A DNA stretch of 64,000 nucleotides from a virus. How positions within the stretch are numbered: position 1 is the first letter of the stretch; every line of letters begins with the position of its first letter. Below are positions 1,268 to 55,003 of this stretch, in pieces. The notes beneath the pieces are model-generated. The model did no database searches. It saw only the letters and a list, made by a program, of their open reading frames with translations, and had not been told where the DNA came from. The translations under genes and the position numbers were made by a program. The stretch is taken from IMG/VR virus record IMGVR_UViG_3300030103_004672, positions 24,678-88,677 of that record; one strand, written 5' to 3'.

Positions 1268-1732
1268 ATGGCAAATACAGATAATAAATGTGCTAATCTA
1301 GAAGTACAAGATCATCACAAACATGCCGAAGATACATTTGGTTTAATTTATGACAAACAGCGAGAGCTCCAAGAAAGGTTAGGGTTTGATTTCTCTAATT
1401 ATACTCTTAAGGACGTTGCTGATTTTTGGTTTGTTAACAAACATGCTTTAGATGATGAAATGGGCGAAATGTTCGATGCACTTGGTGGTGTAAATGACGG
1501 TATAGCTAATGCAGCATGGAAGTATTGGAAGAAAGATAATTCGAAGGCATCAAAAATGTCTGTTAAAGATCTTTCAGAAGCTGACCGCCTTGAGTTATAT
1601 TATGAATGGATTGACGGTTTGCATTTCTACATGAACTTTGCGATTGCACTAGGCATGACAAGCAAAGACATCGTAAATTTATACATGGCAAAGAATGCAG
1701 AAAATTTTGACAGACAAGAAAGAGGTTATTAA
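1268..1732 (+). CDS. All-alpha dimeric dUTPase / dCTP pyrophosphatase (T4 gp56-like)
   Basis: DDEMGE, WKYWK, EWIDGLHF and KNAENFDRQERGY motifs. Confidence 0.8.
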   Translation: MANTDNKCANLEVQDHHKHAEDTFGLIYDKQRELQERLGFDFSNYTLKDVADFWFVNKHALDDEMGEMFDALGGVNDGIANAAWKYWKKDNSKASKMSVKDLSEADRLELYYEWIDGLHFYMNFAIALGMTSKDIVNLYMAKNAENFDRQERGY

Positions 1733-1735
1733 TAT

Positions 1736-3139
1736 ATGCTATTAGATGTTTCGCAGGAAGACGGTAACTTGATCGTATCGTACTATAATTTTGAAGGTAA
1801 GACTAGATTTAAACATTACGAATTAACATCAAAGGATTTGTACAATTGGTATCCATGTGATGCAAGTGATAAAAGAGCAGATCTTAAGATGAAGAACTGG
1901 GATGGTACACCAGTTAGAAAGGGTCGTACAAAGCATCTTAATAAGTATCGTGTTATTGAATACTTAGAGAACATACCTGAGCAAGATAAGAAGACTATAT
2001 TCGGATATGATTTTCCTAAGACATATTTTATTGATATCGAAGTTGAAGTAACTGATAGTTTCCCAGAACCTGAAAAGGCTGAGAATGCTATTACAGCTAT
2101 TTGTATAGTAACGCCTGCAAATCAATGTGTAGTTCTCGCAACACGAGACATTCCAAAGGAGCAATATGGTGCTATTGAAAACCAGATAAATGAACACTTC
2201 AAAAGCACTGGTGAGACATTTACATTTGACATGAAATGTTTTAAGTCTGAATACGACATGCTATACACATTTCTTAAGTCATTTGTAAGAAAGTTCCCTA
2301 TGATGACTGGTTGGAACTTTGTTAAGTTTGACTGGGCTTACATAGTAAATAGAGCAAAAAAGCTTGGGATAGATGCTTCAATAGCTTCACCCCTTGACAG
2401 GTTATTCAGCAACAATAATTATCCGTCACACGTTGGTGTTATGGATTACATGGAGATATATTCTAAGTGGGACAGAACTGTAAGTATCAAAGATGATCTT
2501 AAACTCGATACTGCTGGAGCTGCTGTACTAGGAATTAAGAAGATAAAGTATGATGGCACACTGCAGGATCTGTACGAGAAAGAATACTCAAAATACATAT
2601 TTTACAATGCTGTAGATACGGCTCTAGTACAACTAATCCATAAGAAGATTAAGACGATGGATATTGCGTTGACAATATCACATATGAGTAGGATTAGTAT
2701 ATTTAAAGCTGCCTCACCTGTTGCAATTACAGAATCTTTGTTATGTAAAGAATTCTTAAAGCAAAACAGAGTTATGGCAACTCTTGATGAGAAGAATACA
2801 AAAAGCAGACAGTATGAAGGTGCATTTGTAAAACAACCAATAACAGGCATGCATAACTCTGTTGCATGTTTTGACTTTGCATCACTTTATCCATCAATCA
2901 TGAGACAGATGAATGTCTCTCCTGAAAGTTTTGTAAAGAAGGTAGACCCTAAACATACGTCTGATGAAATGGCTGATGATAGAATAGTTGCTATAAATGG
3001 AGTCGTTTATAAGTCTGAGGAATCAATTCTAAAAAGGATTCTTGCAGATCTATATGGTCAGCGTAAAGAATATAAAAAGAAATCTTTCGAATTGCAGCAA
3101 AAAGCTTATGACCTCGAAAAAACCTTACCAAAAACATAA
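1736..3139 (+). CDS. gp43: Family B DNA polymerase, N-terminal subunit (3'-5' exonuclease + motif A); split gene part A
   Basis: ExoI FIDIEV, ExoII GWNFVKFDW, ExoIII YNAVDT, motif A DFASLYPSIM; ends in first fingers helix (YGQRKEYKKK); no motif B or C. Confidence 0.92.
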   Translation: MLLDVSQEDGNLIVSYYNFEGKTRFKHYELTSKDLYNWYPCDASDKRADLKMKNWDGTPVRKGRTKHLNKYRVIEYLENIPEQDKKTIFGYDFPKTYFIDIEVEVTDSFPEPEKAENAITAICIVTPANQCVVLATRDIPKEQYGAIENQINEHFKSTGETFTFDMKCFKSEYDMLYTFLKSFVRKFPMMTGWNFVKFDWAYIVNRAKKLGIDASIASPLDRLFSNNNYPSHVGVMDYMEIYSKWDRTVSIKDDLKLDTAGAAVLGIKKIKYDGTLQDLYEKEYSKYIFYNAVDTALVQLIHKKIKTMDIALTISHMSRISIFKAASPVAITESLLCKEFLKQNRVMATLDEKNTKSRQYEGAFVKQPITGMHNSVACFDFASLYPSIMRQMNVSPESFVKKVDPKHTSDEMADDRIVAINGVVYKSEESILKRILADLYGQRKEYKKKSFELQQKAYDLEKTLPKT

Positions 3140-6022: not shown

Positions 6023-6775
6023 GTGGATAATTTAAACATTTATATAGTAGGACCATGTAGTGTGGAAAGTAGCTTTATTTTTGGATGCGTTGCAGAGAAA
6101 ATGACTAGCGCGATACCAGACGATAAGAACTGGTATTTAAAAGGAAGCTTTGACAAAGCGAACAGAACTAGTGTCGAAGCGCCTAGAGGTCCTGGAATTT
6201 ATGATTCTATTGATATTTTTGAAGATATTAAAGAAAAATTCACAAATATTAAAATCACTACCGATATCCACGAGCCCTGGCAGGCTGAAAAATTGAGGCA
6301 CATTGTTGATATGATCCAAGTTCCAGCATTTTTATGCAGACAAACTGATTTGATAAGAGAATGTGCACATAATTTTGATGTGATAAATGTAAAGAAAGGC
6401 CAATGGATGGATCCTGGATCAATGCGACATGTGGTTGAGAAGATACGTTATTATAATGAAGATGCAAAGGTATACATCACAGAACGTGGCACTCAGTTTG
6501 GATACGACAGGGTCATAGTAGACTATAGAGCTGTTGATATCATGAAGGAATTTTGCGATGGTGTCATATTGGATTGTACACATTCAACTCAACAGTTAGG
6601 GCAGGGAACTACTGGTGGTAATAGAAATCTTGCAAAGGCATATGTTAAAACTGCAAGAGAATTTGGTTATGATGGAATTTTTGCAGAAACACATCCAGCT
6701 CCAGATACTGCAATTTCTGATAAGGATAGCCAAATAGACTTAGAGTGGATGGCTAGCGTGATAAATACTATATGA
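6023..6775 (+). CDS. kdsA: KDO-8-phosphate synthase
   Basis: GPCSVES, KGSFDKANRTS, QVPAFLCRQTDL, KKGQW, ERG, DCTHS, ETHP..D..SD. Confidence 0.9.
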   Translation: MDNLNIYIVGPCSVESSFIFGCVAEKMTSAIPDDKNWYLKGSFDKANRTSVEAPRGPGIYDSIDIFEDIKEKFTNIKITTDIHEPWQAEKLRHIVDMIQVPAFLCRQTDLIRECAHNFDVINVKKGQWMDPGSMRHVVEKIRYYNEDAKVYITERGTQFGYDRVIVDYRAVDIMKEFCDGVILDCTHSTQQLGQGTTGGNRNLAKAYVKTAREFGYDGIFAETHPAPDTAISDKDSQIDLEWMASVINTI

Positions 6776-7221
6776 AATATTCAAGATCCGCAGGACTGGC
6801 AATCATATACAAAGGGACAGTATTAATGGGGCATCCTAGTAATGGATCTTGGGTTGGTAGATATAGTATTCCAAAAGGTCACGTTGAAGATAGCGAATCG
6901 ATTTTAGAGGCTGCGATTAGAGAGACAAAGGAAGAGGTTGGCATATCAGTTCCACTTGAAATGATTGACAAAACCCCTTACAGAGTTTACAGAATAGGTA
7001 AGCACAGCATTAAAACAGTTTTTTATTATATAGTAAAAATTGACGATCTTGGGCAAATCGGACTAGATACGATAAAGGTACCAAAAGAACAGCTTCAGAT
7101 AGAGGAAATCGACTGGGCTGGATTTATAACATACAAAGAAGCTAAGCTTAGATCATCTAGGTATCAATTAGCACTGATAGATAACTTACTTAATTTAGGA
7201 TTATTAAACCCAACTTTATAA
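6772..7221 (+). CDS. NUDIX hydrolase
   Basis: Nudix box GHVEDSESILEAAIRETKEEVG. Confidence 0.9.
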   Translation: MKYSRSAGLAIIYKGTVLMGHPSNGSWVGRYSIPKGHVEDSESILEAAIRETKEEVGISVPLEMIDKTPYRVYRIGKHSIKTVFYYIVKIDDLGQIGLDTIKVPKEQLQIEEIDWAGFITYKEAKLRSSRYQLALIDNLLNLGLLNPTL

Positions 7222-7230
7222 AAAAATATT

Positions 7231-7410
7231 ATGATGGAAAAATTTGAAAACATTGAGACTTTGATTGAATCAGCAAGAGTAGAGGCTGAAAAATTCTATC
7301 AGAAAGGAAACAAAACAGCTGGCACTAGATTAAGAAAACTCATGCAGGATTTAAAGAACGCTGCACAAGAAGTTAGAGTAGAAGTACAAGAGACTAAGGC
7401 TAACCTATAA
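7231..7410 (+). CDS. Histone H1-like (Hc1-type) small protein of Bacteroidota type; absent from ORF track (59 aa)
   Basis: Manual translation MMEKFENIETLIESARVEAEKFYQKGNKTAGTRLRKLMQDLKNAAQEVRVEVQETKANL; KFY.KGNK.AGTR.RK is the family signature. Confidence 0.8.
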   Translation: MMEKFENIETLIESARVEAEKFYQKGNKTAGTRLRKLMQDLKNAAQEVRVEVQETKANL

Positions 7411-7439: not shown

Positions 7440-8522
7440 ATGGAAAAGCATACGCAGCTAAAGTACTTAACAGACTACATTAGTGATAAATCTACAAGTA
7501 TAGCAATCGCTGCGCTTGTAGGTAAACTAAGTCCAAAGGCGAGTTCACACAAATCAGGTTGGGCATACCACTTAGCAAACCAGTGCCATAATGCCGGTTA
7601 CGAAAACGTCACAGTAGTAACAGATACTACCACAAATTGGGATGATTTCGATGTCGTGCTAATTGAGCATGGGATGGAGTTCAAGGGCACTTTTAATATT
7701 TTCGGTGGTGCAAATGATGATCTTTATTATCAAATAACACGGATCTTTAGTTCTGCTAAGATGTTCAGCCTTCATCATGATATGCCTTGCATAGGTTCTT
7801 TGATAGAAAAAAGGCTGCATACTGGAAGCGACTTATTCAAGACGCTAGAAAGAAAAATTGAAGAGGTTAAAAAGATTTGTGCAAACAATATTACCAGAAT
7901 TGATTGCATCGAAAAAACCGACAAGCTATGTTTTGGTGACAGCCACTCATTTAGCCAATACACACCAGGATATATGACTAGTCGCCACGACGGTCTAACT
8001 ATGCACGGTGCATTAAAACGAGGTCTAGACACATATGTCTATCCTTGGATAAAGTCTCTAAGAATATACCTTGGAAATATCGACGTTAGGCATCATCTTA
8101 TGCGACAGCATAATCCAGAAATGGCTGTTGATAAATTACTAGCTCAATATGAAGATGGTCTTATGAAGCTACAAGAATCAGGAGTTGTGGATATAGAAGT
8201 TGTGCACACTTTACCAATAGAAAACGAGAGTAGAGCTTTGCCAAAAACTGGATACTACAAAGGTACTCCATTTACTGGAACATGGGAAGAACGAACTGAT
8301 TTGGTAAAGCAAATTAATAAAGGTATTGATAAAATGTGTGAAAGAAATGGTTGGAGTTCTTATAAGCATCCTGAGGTATTTTATAACCATATAGGTGAAC
8401 TTCCGTTTGACGTTATGGAAAAGCCAAAATCAGTACATATCGCTCGAGAATACTATAGATGGGATTTAGTAAACAATCGTAAAAACAAAAAGCTGATCAA
8501 GCAATCGATGTCTTTGTTTTAA
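7440..8522 (+). CDS. Putative DNA-modifying enzyme: beta-glucosyltransferase-like N-domain fused to SGNH-like domain, C-terminal clamp-binding-like tail
   Basis: DDFDVVLI...FNIFGG and MFSLHHDMP resemble T4 BGT N-domain; CFGDSHS, G, LGNIDVR, SVH resemble SGNH blocks I/II/III/V; ends QSMSLF. Confidence 0.5.
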   Translation: MEKHTQLKYLTDYISDKSTSIAIAALVGKLSPKASSHKSGWAYHLANQCHNAGYENVTVVTDTTTNWDDFDVVLIEHGMEFKGTFNIFGGANDDLYYQITRIFSSAKMFSLHHDMPCIGSLIEKRLHTGSDLFKTLERKIEEVKKICANNITRIDCIEKTDKLCFGDSHSFSQYTPGYMTSRHDGLTMHGALKRGLDTYVYPWIKSLRIYLGNIDVRHHLMRQHNPEMAVDKLLAQYEDGLMKLQESGVVDIEVVHTLPIENESRALPKTGYYKGTPFTGTWEERTDLVKQINKGIDKMCERNGWSSYKHPEVFYNHIGELPFDVMEKPKSVHIAREYYRWDLVNNRKNKKLIKQSMSLF

Positions 8523-8526
8523 AATT

Positions 8527-9729
8527 ATGGAAATAAAAACAACCAAATACTACGACGAATATTTGAGGTATTTTAATTTAGCAAAGAGGCAACAGGATTC
8601 GAGCAATCTCGGACATGTGCCACACGCAGATTCAGATCTAGATGATGAACTAATGCATCACATTGAACTATACGATGTGGTAGAGAGAAAATATGCCGGG
8701 TTTTCACAGATTGTTAACGATTGTTTTTACGGATGGTCAGAAGATCACCCGTATTGGTCAAGAATGAATGCAGGTCTTTATACAACTCAAAGAAAGCAGG
8801 TTGCAACGAACTGGACTGGCAAGCAAAATCATTTTGATCTGGCAGAATGGCTTTATGTTTTTATACTTCATAGAGTCACAGGATCTGCTATTAACTATGC
8901 AACTAAGCCAAGTGGCTATCATAACACCCTTCTATTTGATTTATGGCAATCTGATACTATAGAACAAATGTGCAAACAGGTTAAGGAGGCAACAAAATCT
9001 TTTTACACATCTGTTGGCTATCAGTTTCCAGCATTCCCAAAGCCACCTGCGCCAAAATCAAATGCTGATTTTAGCTTTAGCACAAAGAGAGAATACGTGT
9101 ATAAAAGAGGCGGCGATTACTTTCTATGTGAGTTCGCACCTAGACTTGCAAGGGATATGGCGCATTTTCTTGAGCAGGGTGGCAAAAAGGATCTTAGAGA
9201 GCTTGGAGAATGGATGTTTAAATGGAATAAGGACAATGGACTAAGAGCTTACAAATTTCAATATGCAGCTGTTATTGCCGATGTTGCAGATTGGTTTCCA
9301 CAATATATCAATAGGGAATCTATGTTTTTCTATGGAACAAACGCGGTAGAGTGCATTGGTTATCTAGCAGATCCAATAAATGGCAAGGGCAAAAAATCAG
9401 AGCCTTTTTTAGATGCAGTCATGACAAGAATTTATGAAGATACTGGATCACTACCATATAATGCCGAGGATGTTGCATGTGACTTTATTCGTTGGATAGA
9501 AAATTACATGAGACCAGGTGCGGATTATAAGCATATCAACATGGACACTCTTTGGAACTCATCTACAATAATTGATCATCCGTTTGGTAGACAGAGGGCA
9601 ATGCTTGAGTTAGGGCTATTAGAATCTTTCAATGGAATGACCAATCACCCATCTGATGACAAAGTTATAAAAGCAGCTGGTATTGATGTAGATGAGTACA
9701 AAAAACGTGTTTCGAAACTTTATAATTAA
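8527..9729 (+). CDS. aG/PT-PPlase-like (HhH-glycosylase fold) DNA base transferase
   Basis: Ordered motifs LYDVVER, LHR, KFQYAAVIADV, YGTNA, NAEDVACDFIRW parallel the N..R / FR / F.AYQ..D / GPGA / E..LCE..K pattern; adjacent to a PLP enzyme. Confidence 0.55.
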   Translation: MEIKTTKYYDEYLRYFNLAKRQQDSSNLGHVPHADSDLDDELMHHIELYDVVERKYAGFSQIVNDCFYGWSEDHPYWSRMNAGLYTTQRKQVATNWTGKQNHFDLAEWLYVFILHRVTGSAINYATKPSGYHNTLLFDLWQSDTIEQMCKQVKEATKSFYTSVGYQFPAFPKPPAPKSNADFSFSTKREYVYKRGGDYFLCEFAPRLARDMAHFLEQGGKKDLRELGEWMFKWNKDNGLRAYKFQYAAVIADVADWFPQYINRESMFFYGTNAVECIGYLADPINGKGKKSEPFLDAVMTRIYEDTGSLPYNAEDVACDFIRWIENYMRPGADYKHINMDTLWNSSTIIDHPFGRQRAMLELGLLESFNGMTNHPSDDKVIKAAGIDVDEYKKRVSKLYN

Positions 9730-9733
9730 GATT

Positions 9734-10621
9734 ATGCCACATAACAAACATACAGATAGTCTATCTAATCAAGATCTAAATCTAATGATGCCTAATCGTG
9801 AAGCATGGCTTGATTTAGCTGGAGATTGGGAAGATCCATTTGATGCTCCTACAATTATTGAACATGATGGCTTTAAAGTCGTTAGAGAAGATATGATGGG
9901 ATTTGGATCAAAGTGTAGATTTGGAGACATCTTAGTACAAAAGGCAGCTTCAGATACTCTTGTATATGTACAGCCTCGATACGGATTTGCAGGTATATCG
10001 CTTGCATATCTTGCCAAAAAGTACAATAAAAAATTAGTATTATTTAGTCCTAGCCAAAAACAAATATCAGATCACCAGGCAATATGTATAGAAAGAGGAG
10101 CTACAATGAAATTTAGAAGAATTGCAGCAATGCCAAATCTAAATAAAATAGCCGCAGATTGGGCTAAAGATAATGGTGCATTTTTCATTCCACTCGGATT
10201 AAGACATCCGTTAGTAACTGCAGCTGCCGTAAAAGTTGCATATGATTTAGCAGAGAACAATGGCTATCCAGAAGAAGTTTGGTCTGCAATATCAACAGGT
10301 GTGCTTCAACGATCTTTACAAATAGCGTGGCCAGATTCTAAATTCAATGCAGTTGCAGTTGCTAGAAATATAAAAAGAGGTGAAAGGGGAAAGGCAAAGA
10401 TGTGGTCACATCCAAAAGCATTTAACCAAAACGTGGATCAAAAATACTATCCTCCATTTCCTTCTGCGCTGAACTATGATGCAAAGGCTTGGGAATTTAT
10501 GAAAAGAAATGGATCTCCTGGCGCTTGGTTTTGGAATGTTGGGGGTGATCCTAAACCTGAATTCGATGAAACAAAAGACAAAACTGATTCACAGAGGGAA
10601 TGGGGAGAAATAAGAGATTAA
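9734..10621 (+). CDS. PLP-dependent fold-type II enzyme, as found in phage base-hypermodification loci
   Basis: VVREDMMGFGSKCR (Schiff-base Lys), SLAY, STGVL, YDAKAW, FWNVG; ATG at 9734 after upstream stop preferred over 9692. Confidence 0.8.
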   Translation: MPHNKHTDSLSNQDLNLMMPNREAWLDLAGDWEDPFDAPTIIEHDGFKVVREDMMGFGSKCRFGDILVQKAASDTLVYVQPRYGFAGISLAYLAKKYNKKLVLFSPSQKQISDHQAICIERGATMKFRRIAAMPNLNKIAADWAKDNGAFFIPLGLRHPLVTAAAVKVAYDLAENNGYPEEVWSAISTGVLQRSLQIAWPDSKFNAVAVARNIKRGERGKAKMWSHPKAFNQNVDQKYYPPFPSALNYDAKAWEFMKRNGSPGAWFWNVGGDPKPEFDETKDKTDSQREWGEIRD

Positions 10622-11538: not shown

Positions 11539-12348
11539 ATGAATCACAAGAAAATACATGACTTAATAATCAAAAGGGCAAAAGAGAGAACTTTAGAAGG
11601 CTACTCCGAAAAACACCACATTATACCAAAATGCCTAGGCGGAACTGATGATCAAGATAATCTAGTACATCTAACAGCAAGGGAGCATTTTATCATACAC
11701 AAACTACTATGTGAGATCTACCCAAATGAATCAAAACTCCATTGGGCTGCATTTATGATGGCAACTGCACGAGGCAAACACATGGACAACCGAGATTACC
11801 GAATAGGCTCTAGAGAATATGAAAGGCTTAGAGAATCTTTAGAGATTAGTGACGAGACTAGGCGAAAATCAGGTATTGCAAACATTGGTAACAAGTATAG
11901 ACTAGGAAAAAAACATTCTGACGAAAGCAAAAAAAAGATGAGCCAGGCAGCTATGGGAAATACAAATTCGAGAGGCTATAAACACACTGAAGAAGCAAGA
12001 AAAAATATGAGTAAGGCTGCGAAGGCAAGAGATCGTAAACCACACTCTGGGGAAACTAAGCAAAAAATGAGTGATGCCTGGAAATTAAAAAAGGAACAGG
12101 GCTACGAGTCACCGATGAAAGGTATAAAGAGGCCTGAAGAAGTAAAGAAGAAAATATCTGCTTCTAAAACTGGTGTTAAGCGTGGCAAGTTCTCGCAAGA
12201 ATGGCTTGATAACATGTCAAAATCTCTAAAGGGAAAAGCGAAGGGCAAAATATGGATTAACAACGGTGTAAAGGGTAGCATGATACTCCCAGATGAGCCA
12301 ATTCCAGAAGGCTGGACACGTGGCATGCTTAGAAGAAAACAAAATTGA
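11539..12348 (+). mobile_element. Free-standing HNH homing endonuclease with NUMOD3-type repeats (MobE-like)
   Basis: EKHHIIPKCLGG.D..NLVHLTAREH..H followed by repeated H(S/T)EE.K.KMS motifs. Confidence 0.9.
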
Positions 12349-12368: not shown

Positions 12369-13505
12369 ATGGATCGAAAATTAGAAAAAAAGTACGAAGA
12401 GTTAGCAGAGCTTAAAAAATTAGCAGGCGAGTATTATAACTACGAACAAGGAATCAAGCTCATGCTTAATTCGATCTACGGTGCATTTGGAAATCCATAC
12501 TTTTATTTCTTCAATGTTGACATAGCAGAAACTATCACACTTCAGGGTAAAGATGCTATTCTTTACACAGAAGAATTAGTAAACAAATACTTTAGAGAAT
12601 TTTGGCATTTAGATACGGATGCACACAATAAGATGGGTATCACCGTTACTGGAAAGATCAAGCAACCTGTAGGAATCTATATTGACACTGATTCAATTTA
12701 CATGAAATTTGAAGAAGTTATCAAAAACTCAGACTGGGAAGGTGATTCTAAAACTTTTATACTTAATTTATACAAGCATAGATTAGGAGAATACATTGAA
12801 CGCATTCTACAAAAATATGCTGATGACAACAACGCCGAAAACTTCTTAAGCTTCGAACTAGAAAGCATTGCAAAGAATGCTATCTGGTTAGCTAAAAAGA
12901 AATACATGCAAAATATAGTTTGGAAAGATCCTGACTTACATTATGATGATCTTACTAAGATCAGCGCTAAGGGATTTGAAATTATTCAATCATCTACTCC
13001 GATATTTGCAAGGCAGAAGTTAAAAGACTTATTAAAATACATCTTTTCTGTTGAAGAGCTTAGCATGAAGGATTTTGCAGGTCGTCTTAAAGAAATAAAG
13101 CGTGAGTTCAAGCTTGCAAACGTTGAAAATATAAGTTTTGCAAAAAAGGTAAACAATTATCAAAGGTATGTTCTAAACGACATAGATAGATTTGAGATTA
13201 CTAAAGGATGCCCTATCGGTGTAAGAAGTGCAGGATATCATAATTACTTGCTAAATAATTCAAATGCAAAAATGAAATACAAACCGCTTGGTAATGGCGA
13301 AAAGTTAAAAATGTATTTTTCTACAGATAGGCACTGTGATGTATTTGCATATGCACCTGGTGATTATCCTTATGAATTTGCACCTGAAATAGATTACGAT
13401 GTGCAATTTGAGAAAACTATATTAGATCCAATAAATCGGGTTATTAAGGCGATGGGATTCAAGCCATTTGATCGTAACTTGATTTATGCAGTGTCTTTAT
13501 TCTAA
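12369..13505 (+). CDS. gp43: Family B DNA polymerase, C-terminal subunit (motifs B, C, thumb); split gene part B
   Basis: Motif B KLMLNSIYGAFG, AETITLQG, motif C YIDTDS, KKKY, KGFE, IDYDVQFEK; ends AVSLF. Confidence 0.92.
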   Translation: MDRKLEKKYEELAELKKLAGEYYNYEQGIKLMLNSIYGAFGNPYFYFFNVDIAETITLQGKDAILYTEELVNKYFREFWHLDTDAHNKMGITVTGKIKQPVGIYIDTDSIYMKFEEVIKNSDWEGDSKTFILNLYKHRLGEYIERILQKYADDNNAENFLSFELESIAKNAIWLAKKKYMQNIVWKDPDLHYDDLTKISAKGFEIIQSSTPIFARQKLKDLLKYIFSVEELSMKDFAGRLKEIKREFKLANVENISFAKKVNNYQRYVLNDIDRFEITKGCPIGVRSAGYHNYLLNNSNAKMKYKPLGNGEKLKMYFSTDRHCDVFAYAPGDYPYEFAPEIDYDVQFEKTILDPINRVIKAMGFKPFDRNLIYAVSLF

Positions 13506-24173: not shown

Positions 24174-25820
24174 ATGGCCGGCTTTACAAACAGAAAAGGA
24201 CCCTTAACTAATACTAATCCCGTTAGAAAGTTACTCAAGGATTTATCAAATCTTGGGATGGCTTATGACGATATGATTTTGCGGAATTCAAGAGCTATTG
24301 GTTTTGCTGAAAATCAAATGGGCTATACGATGAATCCCATGGGATCTGATGCAGATGACATGTACGGTTTTTTTGCAGGTCTTTCCCTAACAGATACATC
24401 ATTGAAGAAGAACATCAGTTTCTTCGATAAAAACTATGCTAAGAAAAGAGAACAGCTTAGAACATTCGCCGTTCAGGATGAAATAGAAGACATCTTAGAT
24501 GTTATATGCGACGAGTGTATTGTATTTGATGAGTCTAATTATATGGCTTATGCAGATTATCATGGTGAAATTTCTAAAGCTATCGAAGAGGAAATCTCTG
24601 ACACATATAATAACATTTACAATTATTTTGGTTTTAATGATGCTGTATCGCCTTGGAACTATTTTAGAAAATGGTTAGTTGATGGCTACCTTGCATTTGA
24701 AATAATCTACAATGACAGGCAGACTGAGATTATTGGTTTTAAAGAACTAGATCCTGTGTCTCTATTACCGGTCGTTGATACAGAAACCGGTCAAAAGATG
24801 TGGATCCAGTATAAGGACCAGGGTCCTAAGGAGAGAAAGCTTTATGACACGCAAATTATTTACCTGTCTTATTCTTCTGTTAATTCTCCACAGAGAATAT
24901 CTTATGTTGAAAGGCTGATTAGAGCATTTAATATGTTACGCATTATGGAGACCACAAGAATCATATGGTCTGTTACTAATGCTTCCTACAAAACACAATT
25001 TATAATACCAGTTGGTGGTAAATCTAAGACGAGAGCAAAACAATCACTTGCACAACTCATGAATTCCTACAGAGAAGTTGTTGAATTTGATCATAACTCA
25101 GGTGAATTACAAACCAATGGTAAGCCAATGATGGCATTTAATAAAGAATATTGGTTACCAAGCAAGGACGGGGAAGTTCCAGAAATTTCTACAATAGGTG
25201 GAGATGGTCCTGATTTAGGGGACACGGAATCTCTTAAATACTTTTCTGATAAGCTGAAATTAGCATCAAAAATACCATTTTCTAGATTCGATAGAGAGGC
25301 TGCAAGTACCTACAGCATGGATGCAAGTGGTATGATGCGAGACGAGATTAAGTTCTCAAAGTTTGTTGATAGGTTAAGATCTATATGGCAAGAGGTTTTA
25401 ATTAAACCACTGTATATTCAATTATGTATGAATCACCCTGAATTGAATGACGATGTGGCGTTTAAGGCAGGTCTTGCACTCAAATTCGTTAAGGATAATG
25501 TATTTGAAGAAATGAAGGAAATGGAGCTTCAAAATAGAAGAATAGATTTCATTGGTAACATGAAAACACAATTGAGCGTAACTGATGAAAACATGAATGA
25601 AATTCCATATTTTGATCTAGGATGGTTAATAAGTAAATATGGTGGATTCACTAGAGATGACCTGAAAGCAAATAGTCGAGCTAAGCGTAGAGAGGAGCTT
25701 GAAAAAGAAGGTTATAGAGAAGAAGACATCGAAAAGATTCTATTAGGAGCCGATAAATCTAAATTTAAGGCTACAAAAACCGAAGAAGATCCATTGGGTG
25801 GCTTAGGCGGCGGAATATAA
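24174..25820 (+). CDS. gp20: Portal protein
   Basis: FRKWLVDG, N.LRIME, EYWLP, RDEIKFSKFVDRLR. Confidence 0.92.
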   Translation: MAGFTNRKGPLTNTNPVRKLLKDLSNLGMAYDDMILRNSRAIGFAENQMGYTMNPMGSDADDMYGFFAGLSLTDTSLKKNISFFDKNYAKKREQLRTFAVQDEIEDILDVICDECIVFDESNYMAYADYHGEISKAIEEEISDTYNNIYNYFGFNDAVSPWNYFRKWLVDGYLAFEIIYNDRQTEIIGFKELDPVSLLPVVDTETGQKMWIQYKDQGPKERKLYDTQIIYLSYSSVNSPQRISYVERLIRAFNMLRIMETTRIIWSVTNASYKTQFIIPVGGKSKTRAKQSLAQLMNSYREVVEFDHNSGELQTNGKPMMAFNKEYWLPSKDGEVPEISTIGGDGPDLGDTESLKYFSDKLKLASKIPFSRFDREAASTYSMDASGMMRDEIKFSKFVDRLRSIWQEVLIKPLYIQLCMNHPELNDDVAFKAGLALKFVKDNVFEEMKEMELQNRRIDFIGNMKTQLSVTDENMNEIPYFDLGWLISKYGGFTRDDLKANSRAKRREELEKEGYREEDIEKILLGADKSKFKATKTEEDPLGGLGGGI

Positions 25821-51867: not shown

Positions 51868-52092
51868 ATGTTAATTGAAAATGATCAAAATAGATCAAAG
51901 TATATTGAGCGTGCGATTTATAACTACATAACAAAGACACTCAAAATAAGATTTGTATCAGGGCAAGTATACGAATACGAAAACTTTGATGAAGAAGTAT
52001 ATGACAAATTTATTAAGGCTGAATCGCAACAGGCTTTTTTCACAGAGCAGATCAAGCCAAATTATGATGGTACTGAACTTTTGCTTGATTAA
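51868..52092 (+). CDS. KTSC-domain protein
   Basis: YN...L.I.F.SG.VYEY..., F..AESQ..FF...IK. Confidence 0.8.
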   Translation: MLIENDQNRSKYIERAIYNYITKTLKIRFVSGQVYEYENFDEEVYDKFIKAESQQAFFTEQIKPNYDGTELLLD

Positions 52093-52568
52093 TGGGTAAG
52101 GTTATTTTAGTAGGTAAGTCAGCTGCTGGTAAGGATCACCTAAGAAAGATATTACAGAGCAGGGGCTTTAAATATGCAGTTTCTTACACAACGAGACCTA
52201 AGAGGGAGAAAGAGATAGACGGCTTAGATTATTTTTTTATAGAAAAGAAAGATTTTAACAATAAGCTATTGTCAGGGGAATGGTACGAATATGTAAAGTT
52301 TAATAATTGGTATTACGGAACAACTAGGAAACAGTTCAAAAACTGCAATCTATTTATAATGACACCAGCAGGTTTAAGCAAGGTCGATCCAATTGATAGA
52401 AAGCAATGTACTGTGATTTACTTAGATGTAAGCAATGAAGTAAGAATGCAGCGTTTATTGGACCGAGGAGATAATAATGATAGTTTAGAACGTAGGATGT
52501 CTGCAGACGATAGAGACTTTGAAACTTTTACAGATTTCGATATTAGAATAACAGAATCTAATTTTTAA
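52092..52568 (+). CDS. Guanylate-kinase-like NMP kinase
   Basis: GKSAAGKD, SYTTRP.R..E.DG.DYFF, YGT. Confidence 0.85.
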   Translation: MGKVILVGKSAAGKDHLRKILQSRGFKYAVSYTTRPKREKEIDGLDYFFIEKKDFNNKLLSGEWYEYVKFNNWYYGTTRKQFKNCNLFIMTPAGLSKVDPIDRKQCTVIYLDVSNEVRMQRLLDRGDNNDSLERRMSADDRDFETFTDFDIRITESNF

Positions 52569-52571
52569 CAC

Positions 52572-53165
52572 ATGATAGTAATTATAGAAGGCCAAGACCG
52601 TACTGGTAAAGATACACAAACTGAGCTATTAAGACAAAAGTATAAACACTTATCATTTCATAAGCTACACTACTCAACACCGCCAACTAAAACAATATAC
52701 ACTAGCATTGATTACAGTTCAAAGCTATATGATGGTATGTTCAAAATGATCCATAGTGCTAGTGAAACAGATCAAAACTTACTTATAAACAGAGCACACC
52801 TAGGTGAATCTGTTTACTCTCCGTTATACCGAGGATATTCTGGTGATTACATATTTGACATTGAAAAACAATATCTAGAAACACTAACAGATGATTTATT
52901 TCTAATTGTCCTAGTAAATGATCCATATTTTGTAATGTCTAGAGATGACGGTGACAGCCACCACAAAAATAGCGAAGAACGCATTGCTAAAGAGCGTGAT
53001 ATGTTTACTCGTGCATATATGAAAAGTGGTATTACTAACAAGCTCTTAATAAATTGTAGAGATTTAACTCCTGATGTGATTCACTACGATATAAGTAAAT
53101 TTATTGAAGACACCATTCATAGTAGATTGGTAAGTCATGATCAAATACAAATACAGTTTCAATGA
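52572..53165 (+). CDS. Thymidylate-kinase-like dNMP kinase
   Basis: IIEGQDRTGKDT, NRAHLGESVY..LYRG; overlaps the gp42-like gene (ATGA). Confidence 0.8.
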   Translation: MIVIIEGQDRTGKDTQTELLRQKYKHLSFHKLHYSTPPTKTIYTSIDYSSKLYDGMFKMIHSASETDQNLLINRAHLGESVYSPLYRGYSGDYIFDIEKQYLETLTDDLFLIVLVNDPYFVMSRDDGDSHHKNSEERIAKERDMFTRAYMKSGITNKLLINCRDLTPDVIHYDISKFIEDTIHSRLVSHDQIQIQFQ

Positions 53166-54031
53166 TAGCAACATTTAAAGGTCAAACATTTGCAGATGTA
53201 TATCAAGAACTTTTAACAGAGCTTTACAGCGATCCGCATTGTGTTAGCAATCCTCGTGGAATGGCTTGTAAAGAAATGCTTAATGTAAGTCTTCATATTG
53301 AAGATCCAGAATTTCCACTATACGAGAATGAACGCAGGTCTAGCCAATTACGCTATATAGCAGGTGAGCTATTATGGTATTTCACAGGTCGTAATGATAT
53401 TGACTTCATATCTAAGTATTCAAAGTTTTGGGCACATTTAGATAATGGTGACGGCACGGTTAATTCTGCTTATGGTAATTTAATATTCAGGGAAGAGAAT
53501 GAACATGGTGTTTCCCAGTGGCAGTGGGCATACGATTCATTAGTTGCAGATAAAGACACTAGACAGGCAGTGTTACATTACAATAAACCTAGTCATCAAT
53601 TTAAAGGTAATAAGGATTTTGTTTGTACGATGTACTCAAACTTTCATATTAGAAATAATAAGTTATATCTGAAGACTGCAATGAGATCTAATGATGCAAT
53701 ATTAGGTACTCCTACAGACATAGCATTCTTTTGTTTTTTGCAACAACAGATGCATCGACTTCTACTTCCACATTATCCAAAGCTAGAATTAGGAAGTTAT
53801 ACTCACACGGTTGACTCTATGCATATTTATGAAAGACACTTTGATCTAGTTAAGGATATGCTAGCTAATGATTTTCAGGCATTTTCATTCCCAAAAATAG
53901 ATCACAATCTAGTTGATTACAAAGGTATTCCATCAAACACCTTAATAAATACAGTATATAGCATAGTCAACGGTTCTATTCTTAATCCATCTACTAAAAT
54001 TATGACATGGATTTATGATAATGCCAAATAG
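53162..54031 (+). CDS. Thymidylate-synthase-family enzyme, dCMP hydroxymethylase (gp42) type
   Basis: NSAYG, DFVCT (catalytic Cys), MRSNDAILGTPTD (Asp where ThyA has Asn), SMHIYERHF. Confidence 0.75.
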   Translation: MIATFKGQTFADVYQELLTELYSDPHCVSNPRGMACKEMLNVSLHIEDPEFPLYENERRSSQLRYIAGELLWYFTGRNDIDFISKYSKFWAHLDNGDGTVNSAYGNLIFREENEHGVSQWQWAYDSLVADKDTRQAVLHYNKPSHQFKGNKDFVCTMYSNFHIRNNKLYLKTAMRSNDAILGTPTDIAFFCFLQQQMHRLLLPHYPKLELGSYTHTVDSMHIYERHFDLVKDMLANDFQAFSFPKIDHNLVDYKGIPSNTLINTVYSIVNGSILNPSTKIMTWIYDNAK

Positions 54032-54052
54032 ACTCAAAAAAAATAGCTAATA

Positions 54053-55003
54053 ATGAAGCTACTAGATTTTAACCAATTTATCAACGAGAATTTCTCTGAA
54101 CAATACCCAGGCCTTAAGAAGGTATATTTAGCTACGAAAAGATCTAGTGGTCAGTATTGGTTATCTTACAAGGGATTTGCAGGCAACAAATTCTTTACAC
54201 AAATAACTGAAAAAAATATTGATGATTTAGACATCAATAAGGATTACCCTGTTTTAACTTACAATAAAGAGCTTGTTACTAAGCTTATTGATTCTGGAAG
54301 AATAAAAGAAGAAAACGTTTACAATCTTCCAAAGCACGTAGATTTATCAGGATCTAAAGAAGAATTTCACAAGTTAGCTGGTGATCATGAAAATGTTCCG
54401 ACTACAGTTTATACTAAGGAAGATGCCCTAGAGAAACTTAATTTCCCAATCATCGCAAAACCCTCACAAGGCCACAGCGGAATGGGAATACAAATTTTTA
54501 AGACTAAAGAAGATTTTGAAAAGGCAGACGAAAATAAATTTGATACATTCTCTGAATTTATAGATAAGGCTGAAGAGCAGAGGTTTTTTGTATTTAAAGG
54601 AGAGCCGTTCTTTTGGCAAGAAAGACAGCCTAATAATGCAAAGGCAAAATCAGGCGACGGCGGAGCAGATTCAAAAATGAATTTTAAGTATTGTAGAAAG
54701 GATCCGGCTAATATTCCATCTGAATATGCAAGTGTTATCAAAGAATTTTCTAAGATGTATGAGAACCTACCTATGATATGTTTTGACATGATGAAAGATA
54801 AAAATGGTAAGGTATTCGTTATTGAGCCAAATAGCCAACCAGGTCCACCATTTGATTCGACTGCGAAGATGTATGAGAAGATTTACGAAGACTTCTACGG
54901 TGAGAAGATGGATAAGGCATCTAAAGATAAGCTCGATGAATATTCTAAGCAAATGATTGAGATGACTTTAGCAGATGATTCAGGAAGATTTTCAACTGAA
55001 TAA
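54053..55003 (+). CDS. ATP-grasp (RimK-like) ligase
   Basis: FPIIAKP..GHSGMGI, EFI, E.R, FD, VIEPNSQPG. Confidence 0.8.
   Translation: MKLLDFNQFINENFSEQYPGLKKVYLATKRSSGQYWLSYKGFAGNKFFTQITEKNIDDLDINKDYPVLTYNKELVTKLIDSGRIKEENVYNLPKHVDLSGSKEEFHKLAGDHENVPTTVYTKEDALEKLNFPIIAKPSQGHSGMGIQIFKTKEDFEKADENKFDTFSEFIDKAEEQRFFVFKGEPFFWQERQPNNAKAKSGDGGADSKMNFKYCRKDPANIPSEYASVIKEFSKMYENLPMICFDMMKDKNGKVFVIEPNSQPGPPFDSTAKMYEKIYEDFYGEKMDKASKDKLDEYSKQMIEMTLADDSGRFSTE

Follow-up and report, generated by a model that had tools for sequence, protein, structure and literature searches.

The stretch of DNA studied here, which we call the window, comprises 64,000 nucleotides of a virus and corresponds to positions 24,678 to 88,677 of the IMG/VR record IMGVR_UViG_3300030103_004672. 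The whole record is 88,677 bp long, with a completeness of 32% according to CheckV. At positions 7440-8522 the window carries ORF360, an open reading frame (ORF) whose product joins a domain homologous to the N-terminal domain of the beta-glucosyltransferase (BGT) of phage T4 to a domain of the SGNH/GDSL fold. A first-pass annotation, made from the sequence alone, had already described it as such a chimera. The reading frame is genuine, with an ATG start and 360 amino acids, and all the strings quoted in that annotation are found in its translation: TNWDDFDVVLIEHG at residues 65-78, GTFNIFGG at 83-90, AKMFSLHHDMP at 106-116, GDSH at 166-169, GNID at 212-215 and SVH at 331-333.

7440..8522, + strand: ORF360, two-domain enzyme (BGT-like N-domain and SGNH C-domain), ATG start, 360 amino acids; AlphaFold2 model; PHROG 13881 and 17781
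7440..7904, + strand: N-domain of ORF360 (about residues 1-155), flavodoxin/Rossmann-like, homologous to the N-terminal acceptor-side domain of T4 BGT (hhalign, VIA-align); conserved residues S36, H37, W41, D71, N86, F88, G89 and G90
7905..8522, + strand: SGNH/GDSL-fold domain of ORF360 (about residues 155-349; Foldseek, VIA-align, column counts), with block I G166-D167-S168-H169, block II D184-G185, block III G212-N213-I214-D215 and block V S331-V332-H333

Conservation counts and the family profile are based on an alignment of 118 sequences (A1), from which an AlphaFold2 model was also built (predicted local distance difference test score (pLDDT) 96.7, predicted template modelling score (pTM) 0.93). 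ORF360 matches PHROG 13881 and 17781, both groups of unknown function, while Pfam returns only noise with no family above its cut-off and NCBIfam has no match. The family profile finds no PDB sequence at E <= 10, and the NlpC/P60 protein that phmmer brings up for ORF360 among the PDB sequences (E 0.65) was judged to be a chance match. Homologues are numerous: 733 metagenome proteins at E <= 1e-3 (clusters at 90% identity), 402 representatives when clustered at 50% identity, and 595 confirmed relatives in IMG/VR. In GenBank 43 phage records harbour a homologue, 38 of them from Aeromonas, three from Tenacibaculum and two from Stenotrophomonas phages. It is a large family, viral by appearance.

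The C-terminal half has the three-layer alpha/beta/alpha fold of the SGNH proteins. With the ORF360 model Foldseek gives 64 PDB matches at E <= 0.001, the best one being 3p94_A (E 2.5e-6), and nearly all of the matches listed are GDSL/SGNH proteins. VIA-align against 48,161 chains finds 2hsj_A with Z 14.5 (root mean square deviation (rmsd) 3.8, 175 aligned residues) and 4rsh_A with Z 14.0, further PatB (7tjb, Z 11.7), the RNA-binding OSK domain (Z 11.2) and the C-domain of OatA (6vjp, Z 10.6). The earlier reading of this half as SGNH-like is confirmed by the fold, as is the statement that it is not a UDP-glucose (uridine diphosphate glucose) domain, for no UDP-sugar Rossmann domain is present. 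The residues were assigned to the SGNH blocks from their motifs and from where they follow the strands of the model, and not by residue-level superposition. Within the family S168 is found in 117 of 118 sequences, H333 in 116, N213 in 101 (with Ser in another 13) and G185 in 85. Seven residues are invariant in all 118 sequences (D167, H169, D215, R217, R265, R285 and E327), and H218, H219, R222 and E261 are nearly so. The Asp usually found in block V three residues before the His (DxxH) is absent from ORF360, which reads K330-S331-V332-H333; the nearest invariant acid to His333 is E327. Because Ser, Asn and His are conserved and the fold is that of the SGNH proteins, the esterase/acyltransferase machinery appears to be retained, with an unusual set rich in Arg and His added to it.

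For the N-terminal half we compared the ORF360 family profile with that of the BGT family (alignment A6, 34 sequences) using hhalign. The two match with a probability of 97.2% (E 4.1e-11) over 101 columns, positions 14-121 of the ORF360 alignment lying on BGT 2-118, and a rerun gave 96.0%. In the controls, reversed BGT columns reach 0.2%, 40 column shuffles at most 1.6% and the T4 alpha-glucosyltransferase (AGT) 0.9%. The likeness of this half to BGT noted in the first-pass annotation is thus beyond chance, and the T4 BGT strings given there are truly part of T4 b-gt (NC_000866). With a single sequence on one side the signal is lower: 76.5% for the ORF360 profile against T4 BGT, and 11% (E 0.0028, same region) for the BGT profile against the ORF360 sequence of the window. 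The two families share an N-x-F-G-G loop, invariant in BGT (N70, G73, G74) and near-invariant in the ORF360 family (N86, G89, G90). A separate model of the N-domain has a pLDDT of 96.5, and VIA-align against the same chains ranks T4 BGT (1c3j_A) first, with Z 6.6, rmsd 3.0 and 105 aligned residues, and AGT at rank 16. Because the fold searches, to which we return below, are not decisive, we take the origin of the N-domain from the sequence profiles; its link to BGT rests on the profile-profile comparison and not on fold ranking.

The catalytic residues of BGT have not been carried over. Its invariant T99 and D100 (in T99-D100-I-R) fall opposite a gap of the ORF360 family, and among ORF360 residues 111-117 only P116 reaches 70% conservation, position 114 staying below that value. 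The string AKMFSLHHDMP, which had been taken for the equivalent of the Asp100 loop, is therefore not borne out as such. The invariant residues of the BGT C-domain (G188, R191, R269 and E272) have no aligned partner, the hhalign match covering the N-domains only. Judged from these alignments the chimera is real and has lost the catalytic apparatus of the glucosyltransferase, and of the earlier interpretation the architecture stands, a BGT-homologous N-domain followed by an SGNH C-domain, but not the conserved counterpart of Asp100.

Two further genes follow ORF360 closely:

8527..9729, + strand: ORF400, partner protein without a known family; its start lies 4 nt behind the stop codon of ORF360
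9734..10621, + strand: ORF309, PALP-fold enzyme belonging to the PHROG of phage M6 gp52 (phrog_7093, E 7.7e-37; Pfam PALP E 4.2e-4, below cut-off)

The conservation of this cassette was counted over 80 IMG/VR loci, 62 of a close clade and 18 of a distant clade (40-44% identity). An ORF400 homologue lies directly downstream of the ORF360 homologue in 61 of the 80 loci, which are 61 of the 62 close-clade loci, and 44 of these 62 have an ORF309 homologue in the cassette. In 38 of the 80 loci a dUTPase_2 gene comes directly after the complete cassette. Between the ORF400 and ORF309 homologues of 37 loci lies a gene for a protein of about 330-380 amino acids, which is missing from the window (L009:12429-13562, L060:12985-13980); it has no Pfam match, and the copy in L060 has no PHROG match either.

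ORF360 homologues are also found fused to their partners. Among the 150 family representatives listed there are nine fusion proteins, seven with an ORF400-type C-half and two with a domain of the type HMUDK_hel, the Pfam family of the helical accessory domain of 5-hydroxymethyldeoxyuridine (5-hmdU) DNA kinases. In P0152 residues 410-772 match ORF400 by BLASTP with E 3e-49 and 30% identity; the other fusions with an ORF400-type C-half show 23-35% identity to ORF400, and the alignment of the ORF400 family (A4) takes in seven fusion proteins. The fusion P0134 contains an HMUDK_hel domain (E 4.5e-11) and in addition an FkbM methyltransferase, and the C-terminal domain of ORF233c from Aeromonas phage 44RR2.8t gives a weak HMUDK_hel match (E 0.0036). 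ORF400 itself has no match in Pfam, PHROG or NCBIfam and none by tblastn against phages, and BLASTP detects no similarity between it and the C-half of ORF233c. Against PDB sequences the profiles of the ORF400 family and of the 44RR-type HMUDK_hel alignment (A5) give noise only. A hint of HMUDK_hel for ORF400 in the ESM Atlas (11-36% of the members of neighbouring clusters) was not confirmed by direct comparisons.

In the distant clade the gene order is ThyA-like, DUF6378, dUTPase, ORF360 homologue, myo-inositol-1-phosphate synthase (Pfam 1.5e-22), a 131-aa protein and an HMUDK_hel protein (Pfam 1.7e-9 and 3.2e-13). The ThyA-like gene is present in 14 of the 18 loci, the dUTPase in 16, the inositol synthase in all 18, and the 131-aa and HMUDK_hel proteins in 17 each. 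DUF6378, counted over all loci and not separately in the distant clade, occurs in 75 of 80, at the place directly upstream of the ORF360 homologue that KDO8P synthase, NUDIX and Hc1 genes take up in the window; the window has no DUF6378. A small distant-clade protein resembles the phosphatase region of PNK (phrog_415, E 1.3e-8; L068:11160-14201, L079:11059-16021, L086:7884-10597), and loci of the L079 type additionally contain an FkbM methyltransferase and a C5 cytosine DNA methylase. In two of the 80 loci (L038:11210-12007, L065) the ORF360 and ORF400 homologues are separated by a gene of the CitG family (ATP:dephospho-CoA triphosphoribosyl transferase, PF01874, E 8.2e-11), possibly a hint at a donor or carrier derived from coenzyme A (CoA). 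In three others a UDP-galactopyranose mutase (Glf) and a GT2 glycosyltransferase stand beside the cassette (L028:14483-16763, L029, L058), and independently of these a UDP-galactopyranose mutase is encoded two genes upstream of the homologue in Aeromonas phage 25 (L002:2332-3396). A LOG-like protein is found near the ORF360 homologue in nine loci, and an SSF symporter adjoins ORF233c of 44RR2.8t. ORF360 is the constant element of these cassettes, and its partners and neighbours vary.

The longest reading frame of ORF309 begins at 9692, but the ATG at 9734, chosen by comparison with the N-termini of homologues, is probably the true start and gives a protein of 295 amino acids. ORF309 shares phrog_7093 with gp52 of phage M6, which is a full-length member (E 2.2e-159), and in this respect represents a tailoring enzyme of the M6 gp52 type, dependent on pyridoxal phosphate (PLP). 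In a direct BLASTP comparison the two are weakly similar (E 0.008), over a common C-terminal motif. PMC8989533 describes M6 gp52 as a PLP-dependent decarboxylase whose substrate is an amino acid attached to thymidine in DNA. Among the phages of GenBank, ORF309 matches only gp1 of Erythrobacter phage vB_EliS_R6L and a protein of Microcystis phage Mae-JY30, with 34-36% identity; both matches lie inside genes annotated as 'DNA modification methylase', which adjoin ParB/sulfiredoxin genes or a PAPS-reductase gene.

Genes that could supply a modified nucleotide are found elsewhere in the window:

53162..54031, + strand: divergent ThyA-family protein, 289 amino acids, predicted dCMP hydroxymethylase (PF00303, 88.5 bits)
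52572..53165, + strand: thymidylate-kinase-like P-loop kinase (phrog_761, E 3.5e-9; PF02223, 28.2 bits)
1268..1732, + strand: protein of the dUTPase_2 (all-alpha NTP pyrophosphatase) family (PF08761, E 6.4e-10)

The ThyA homologue scores far below the cut-off of the ThyA equivalog (71.8 versus 327 bits). It has Asp at the positions of Asp179 and Asp145 of the T4 dCMP hydroxymethylase, whereas the dUMP hydroxymethylase of phage SP10 has Asn at the first of these positions; the ThyA-like genes of the distant clade have Asp as well. Asp179 of the T4 enzyme is the residue of cytosine specificity and of protonation, according to PMC6400193 and PMC13326640. The protein of the window is thus predicted to supply a 5-hydroxymethylcytosine (5hmC) substrate. 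A gene for a predicted pyrimidine hydroxymethylase accompanies ORF360 in its genome, and a divergent ThyA-family gene is present in each of the three complete genomes with an ORF360 homologue that were checked, namely those of 44RR2.8t and phage 25 and a 293-kb contig with direct terminal repeats. The neighbouring thymidylate-kinase-like protein is a candidate for a kinase of hydroxymethylated deoxynucleoside monophosphates, and the dUTPase_2 protein a candidate dCTPase. The hydroxymethylase belongs to a run of genes at 52092-55003 for guanylate-kinase-like, thymidylate-kinase-like, divergent ThyA and ATP-grasp proteins, the last of which (54053-55003) could be a further tailoring enzyme.

The replication module of the window is T4-like, with a split family-B DNA polymerase, ribonucleotide reductase (RNR), UvsX, DnaB and SbcCD-like gp46/47, and the nearest GenBank phage relative of the polymerase comes from a 462-kb uncultured phage (53% identity). 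The two parts of the polymerase gene, both with PHROG matches to DNA polymerase, are about 9.2 kb apart (1736-3139 and 12369-13505), and the second is immediately preceded by a gene for an HNH homing endonuclease (11539-12348). The ORF360 cassette, here between the two halves, is found just upstream of the first half in related contigs. Directly upstream of ORF360 (6023-7410) are genes for a KDO8P synthase, a NUDIX hydrolase and an Hc1 histone H1-like protein of 59 amino acids (PF07432, E 3.6e-22); the KDO8P synthase, two genes upstream of ORF360, is above the cut-off of NCBIfam NF003543 (260.7 bits). A scan for promoters and terminators around the cassette gave 28 hits, not above the 22.1 +/- 4.9 of shuffled sequences.

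Four lines of evidence suggest a link between ORF360 and DNA hypermodification: the fusions, the synteny, the shared PHROG of ORF309 and gp52, and the supply of substrate. The first-pass annotation had proposed a base-flipping DNA O-acyltransferase or deacylase, and action on modified DNA bases is strengthened by the fusions to ORF400-type and HMUDK_hel domains, by the homologue of M6 gp52 next door and by the linked gene resembling dCMP hydroxymethylases. In our opinion the chances are about even that ORF360 modifies, after replication and by acyl transfer, a 5-hydroxymethylated pyrimidine in the DNA of the phage itself, most likely 5hmC. The enzyme is probably cytoplasmic, as no secretion signal is evident and the protein begins, in the model, with strand beta-1 of a domain predicted with high confidence. 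The data show the folds and homologies of the two halves, the conserved residues, the gene fusions, the synteny and the hydroxymethylase signature; that the substrate is DNA, that an acyl group is transferred, from which donor and in what order of steps, is what we infer here; the chemistry, be it acyl transfer or deacylation, is suggested by the modelled fold.

The BGT-derived N-domain would position the target base so that its hydroxymethyl group lies where the two domains meet. BGT's UDP-glucose domain and catalytic Asp are lacking; their place is taken by the SGNH domain, with the conserved pair Ser168/His333 and a putative oxyanion hole formed by Asn213 and Gly185, and the invariant Arg and His residues around this site may hold phosphates of the DNA or of the donor. 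An acyl-enzyme at Ser168 would then pass its acyl group to the 5-CH2OH, giving 5-acyloxymethyl-cytosine. The ester could be the final mark or, more likely, a leaving group that takes over the role of the P-loop 5-hmdU DNA kinase. ORF400, or an HMUDK_hel-domain protein in other phages, might substitute the ester with a small nucleophile, and ORF309 would decarboxylate the appended amino acid. We propose this order of activation and substitution because a constant ORF360 with variable partners mirrors thymidine hypermodification, in which, according to PMC8989533, the kinase that activates 5-hmdU is constant and the transferases and tailoring enzymes after it vary. That O-acylation of 5hmC in duplex DNA creates a leaving group independent of a kinase, replaced by partners of the ORF400 or HMUDK_hel type with amino acids, inositol or sugars, is the more speculative part of the proposal, and we put it forward only tentatively.

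Several observations weigh against an acyl-transferring modifier of DNA. The Pfam family T4-Gluco-transf matches 3 of the 118 members and one fusion protein, all below threshold (best member E 0.024). The Z of 6.6 is weak if taken alone, unrelated flavodoxin-like folds coming within 1 of it. With the N-domain Foldseek finds nothing in the PDB at E <= 0.001 (best match CheY3, 9.1e-3), and BGT is not among the 50 PDB matches listed in a second structure search, where the top Z is 6.2 (C-terminal domain of a catalase-phenol oxidase, TIR). Against BFVD the N-domain matches only its own family at E <= 0.001, with weak glycosyltransferase matches at E 0.06-0.13. Structure comparison thus upholds the earlier view of the C-half at Z 14.5 and gives the N-half BGT as a weak top match. 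In the SGNH domain, Pfam GDSL families match 12, 10 and 5 of the 118 members, all below cut-off, the Gly of block II is kept in no more than 85 of the 118 sequences, and block V lacks its Asp. For ORF400 no tie to amino-acid:DNA transferases or to HMUDK_hel proteins emerged: hhalign gives 0.2% each for its family against the 44RR-type HMUDK_hel alignment and against M6 gp51 (the alignments being shallow) and none of its 57 members matches HMUDK_hel at E <= 1. That no P-loop DNA kinase like M6 gp54 was found in five records, the complete 293-kb genome among them, fits the proposal, but this was a BLAST-level search with one query; most of these records are fragments, and the genome of the window itself is 32% complete. 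Moreover, phosphoryl or sugar-phosphate chemistry would account for the many invariant Arg and His residues just as well, and the sugar and polyol genes recurring beside the homologues could mean a glycosyl or polyol donor.

These last points lead to a reading of ORF360 as a non-canonical glycosyl, polyol or sugar-phosphate transferase, whose SGNH-like domain binds a sugar, inositol or Kdo-type donor and attaches the group to 5hmC. The BGT ancestry of the N-domain speaks for it, and so do the neighbouring genes: the UDP-galactopyranose mutase near the phage 25 homologue, Glf and GT2 in three loci, the myo-inositol-1-phosphate synthase in 18 of 18 distant-clade loci, the SSF sugar/solute symporter beside ORF233c and the KDO8P synthase two genes upstream in the window. 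R217, R265 and R285 together with H218 and H219 would suit the binding of phosphate. Nevertheless the Ser/His/Asn machinery of an esterase is kept and the catalytic Asp of BGT is absent, the supply genes could instead feed a nucleophile for the helical partner protein, and we know of no glycosyltransferase with an SGNH fold. We regard this transferase as rather unlikely. SGNH proteins are mostly hydrolases, and the best structural matches of ORF360 are acetyl or sialate esterases, which would fit an esterase or deacylase that cleaves off a group bound as an ester, on a DNA adduct or on a small-molecule precursor. Such a trimming step, however, leaves unexplained why ORF360 is the one constant member of variable cassettes and why it is fused to a partner of the DNA-recognition type, and a hydrolase in this sense seems unlikely to us.

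ORF360 might also act on the nucleotide pool (hydroxymethyl-dCMP, hydroxymethyl-dCTP or precursors) and not on polymer DNA, which we hold to be quite improbable. The distant-clade gene does stand in a run of nucleotide-metabolism genes (ThyA-like, DUF6378, dUTPase) and that of the window near the RNR genes, but polymer DNA is the substrate of BGT and also of the 5-hmdU DNA kinases, which share the HMUDK_hel domain with fused ORF360 homologues, and M6 gp52 from the PHROG of ORF309 acts on DNA too (both statements according to PMC8989533). It is very improbable that ORF360 serves the cell envelope, as an auxiliary O-acetyl esterase or transferase acting on lipopolysaccharide, capsule or peptidoglycan, and is merely sited in the replication module. 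Peptidoglycan and carbohydrate esterases are among its SGNH matches and a KDO8P synthase is encoded nearby, yet a secretion signal is not evident, and the BGT-type N-domain, the fusions, the linkage to a hydroxymethylase and the gp52-like neighbour all point to DNA.

Hypermodification of phage DNA shapes the defence by restriction, CRISPR and glycosylases, and in the known routes 5-hydroxymethyl pyrimidines are taken further by glycosyltransferases, a carbamoyltransferase or a P-loop kinase. If ORF360 acts on a DNA base as proposed, an SGNH-fold enzyme would bring new chemistry to DNA, and a new family of cytosine hypermodification would be widespread in aquatic jumbo phages as well as in the culturable Aeromonas phages 44RR2.8t, 31 and 25. 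This could explain what the T4-like Aeromonas phages that carry gene 42 do with 5hmC, and would suggest that the abundant uncultured phages of aquatic habitats contain modified cytosines not yet known. BGT is a standard tool for labelling 5hmC, and a relative that installs a different group could serve as a second, orthogonal reagent.

Phage DNA hypermodification is a known kind of system, and the architecture of ORF360 is, as far as we could find, so far undescribed in it. Literature searches on SGNH enzymes in phage DNA modification and on inositol- or PLP-linked cytosine hypermodification brought up no description of the family. A term search for SGNH, GDSL or esterase found no mention in the accessible text, supplements aside, of PMC8989533, PMC8670742, PMC13326640, PMC8256090 and bioRxiv 10.1101/2023.12.21.572611, a negative result limited by the figures and tables of contigs in PMC8989533 and PMC8256090, where family members may still be shown.

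In comparison with known systems, ORF360 shares with the SGNH hydrolases and O-acyltransferases such as PatB and the C-domain of OatA the fold (Z 10.6-14.5) and the Ser of block I, the Asn of block III and the His of block V. It differs from them by the added BGT-like N-domain, by the invariant His169 right after the Ser, by the set R217/H218/H219/R222/R265/R285/E327 and by the lack of the Asp three residues ahead of the His; ORF360 is predicted to be cytoplasmic, stands in a context of DNA metabolism and not of the cell wall, and stays below the Pfam GDSL cut-offs. With T4 BGT (PF09198, GT-B fold) it shares the homologous Rossmann-like N-terminal domain over BGT 2-118, the N-x-F-G-G loop and the occurrence in a phage genome with a gene of the dCMP-hydroxymethylase type. 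Unlike BGT, it has no counterpart of Asp100 and an SGNH fold instead of the UDP-glucose C-domain; no member of its family reaches the gathering cut-off of PF09198, which the protein of the window does not match at all.

ORF233c of the Aeromonas phages 44RR2.8t and 31 (795 amino acids) and ORF225c of phage 25 (348 amino acids), annotated as hypothetical, are true members of the family, with 33-38% identity to ORF360 (E 5e-49 to 8e-34) and a BFVD fold match (Q56ED1, 7.1e-8). These phages have gene 42 in their genomes. ORF233c differs from ORF360 by its fused C-terminal domain with the weak HMUDK_hel match, by the lack of an ORF400 behind it and by the SSF symporter as neighbour, and ORF225c by the neighbouring UDP-galactopyranose mutase.

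The thymidine hypermodification clusters of phages M6, ViI and PaMx11 combine a 5-hmdU DNA kinase with an amino-acid:DNA transferase or aGPT-Pplase2 and a PLP decarboxylase, according to PMC8989533 and PMC11472151. Like them, the loci studied here come with a gene for a hydroxymethylase, predicted in the case of the window, with a PLP enzyme from the PHROG of gp52 and with HMUDK_hel proteins, here as partners of ORF360 homologues. On the side of the differences, the search for a P-loop DNA kinase (five records, one query) detected none and ORF400 shows no detectable relation to aGPT-Pplase or HMUDK_hel proteins, while the hydroxymethylase of the window carries the Asp of the cytosine type and the constant enzyme of the cassettes is the SGNH/BGT chimera.

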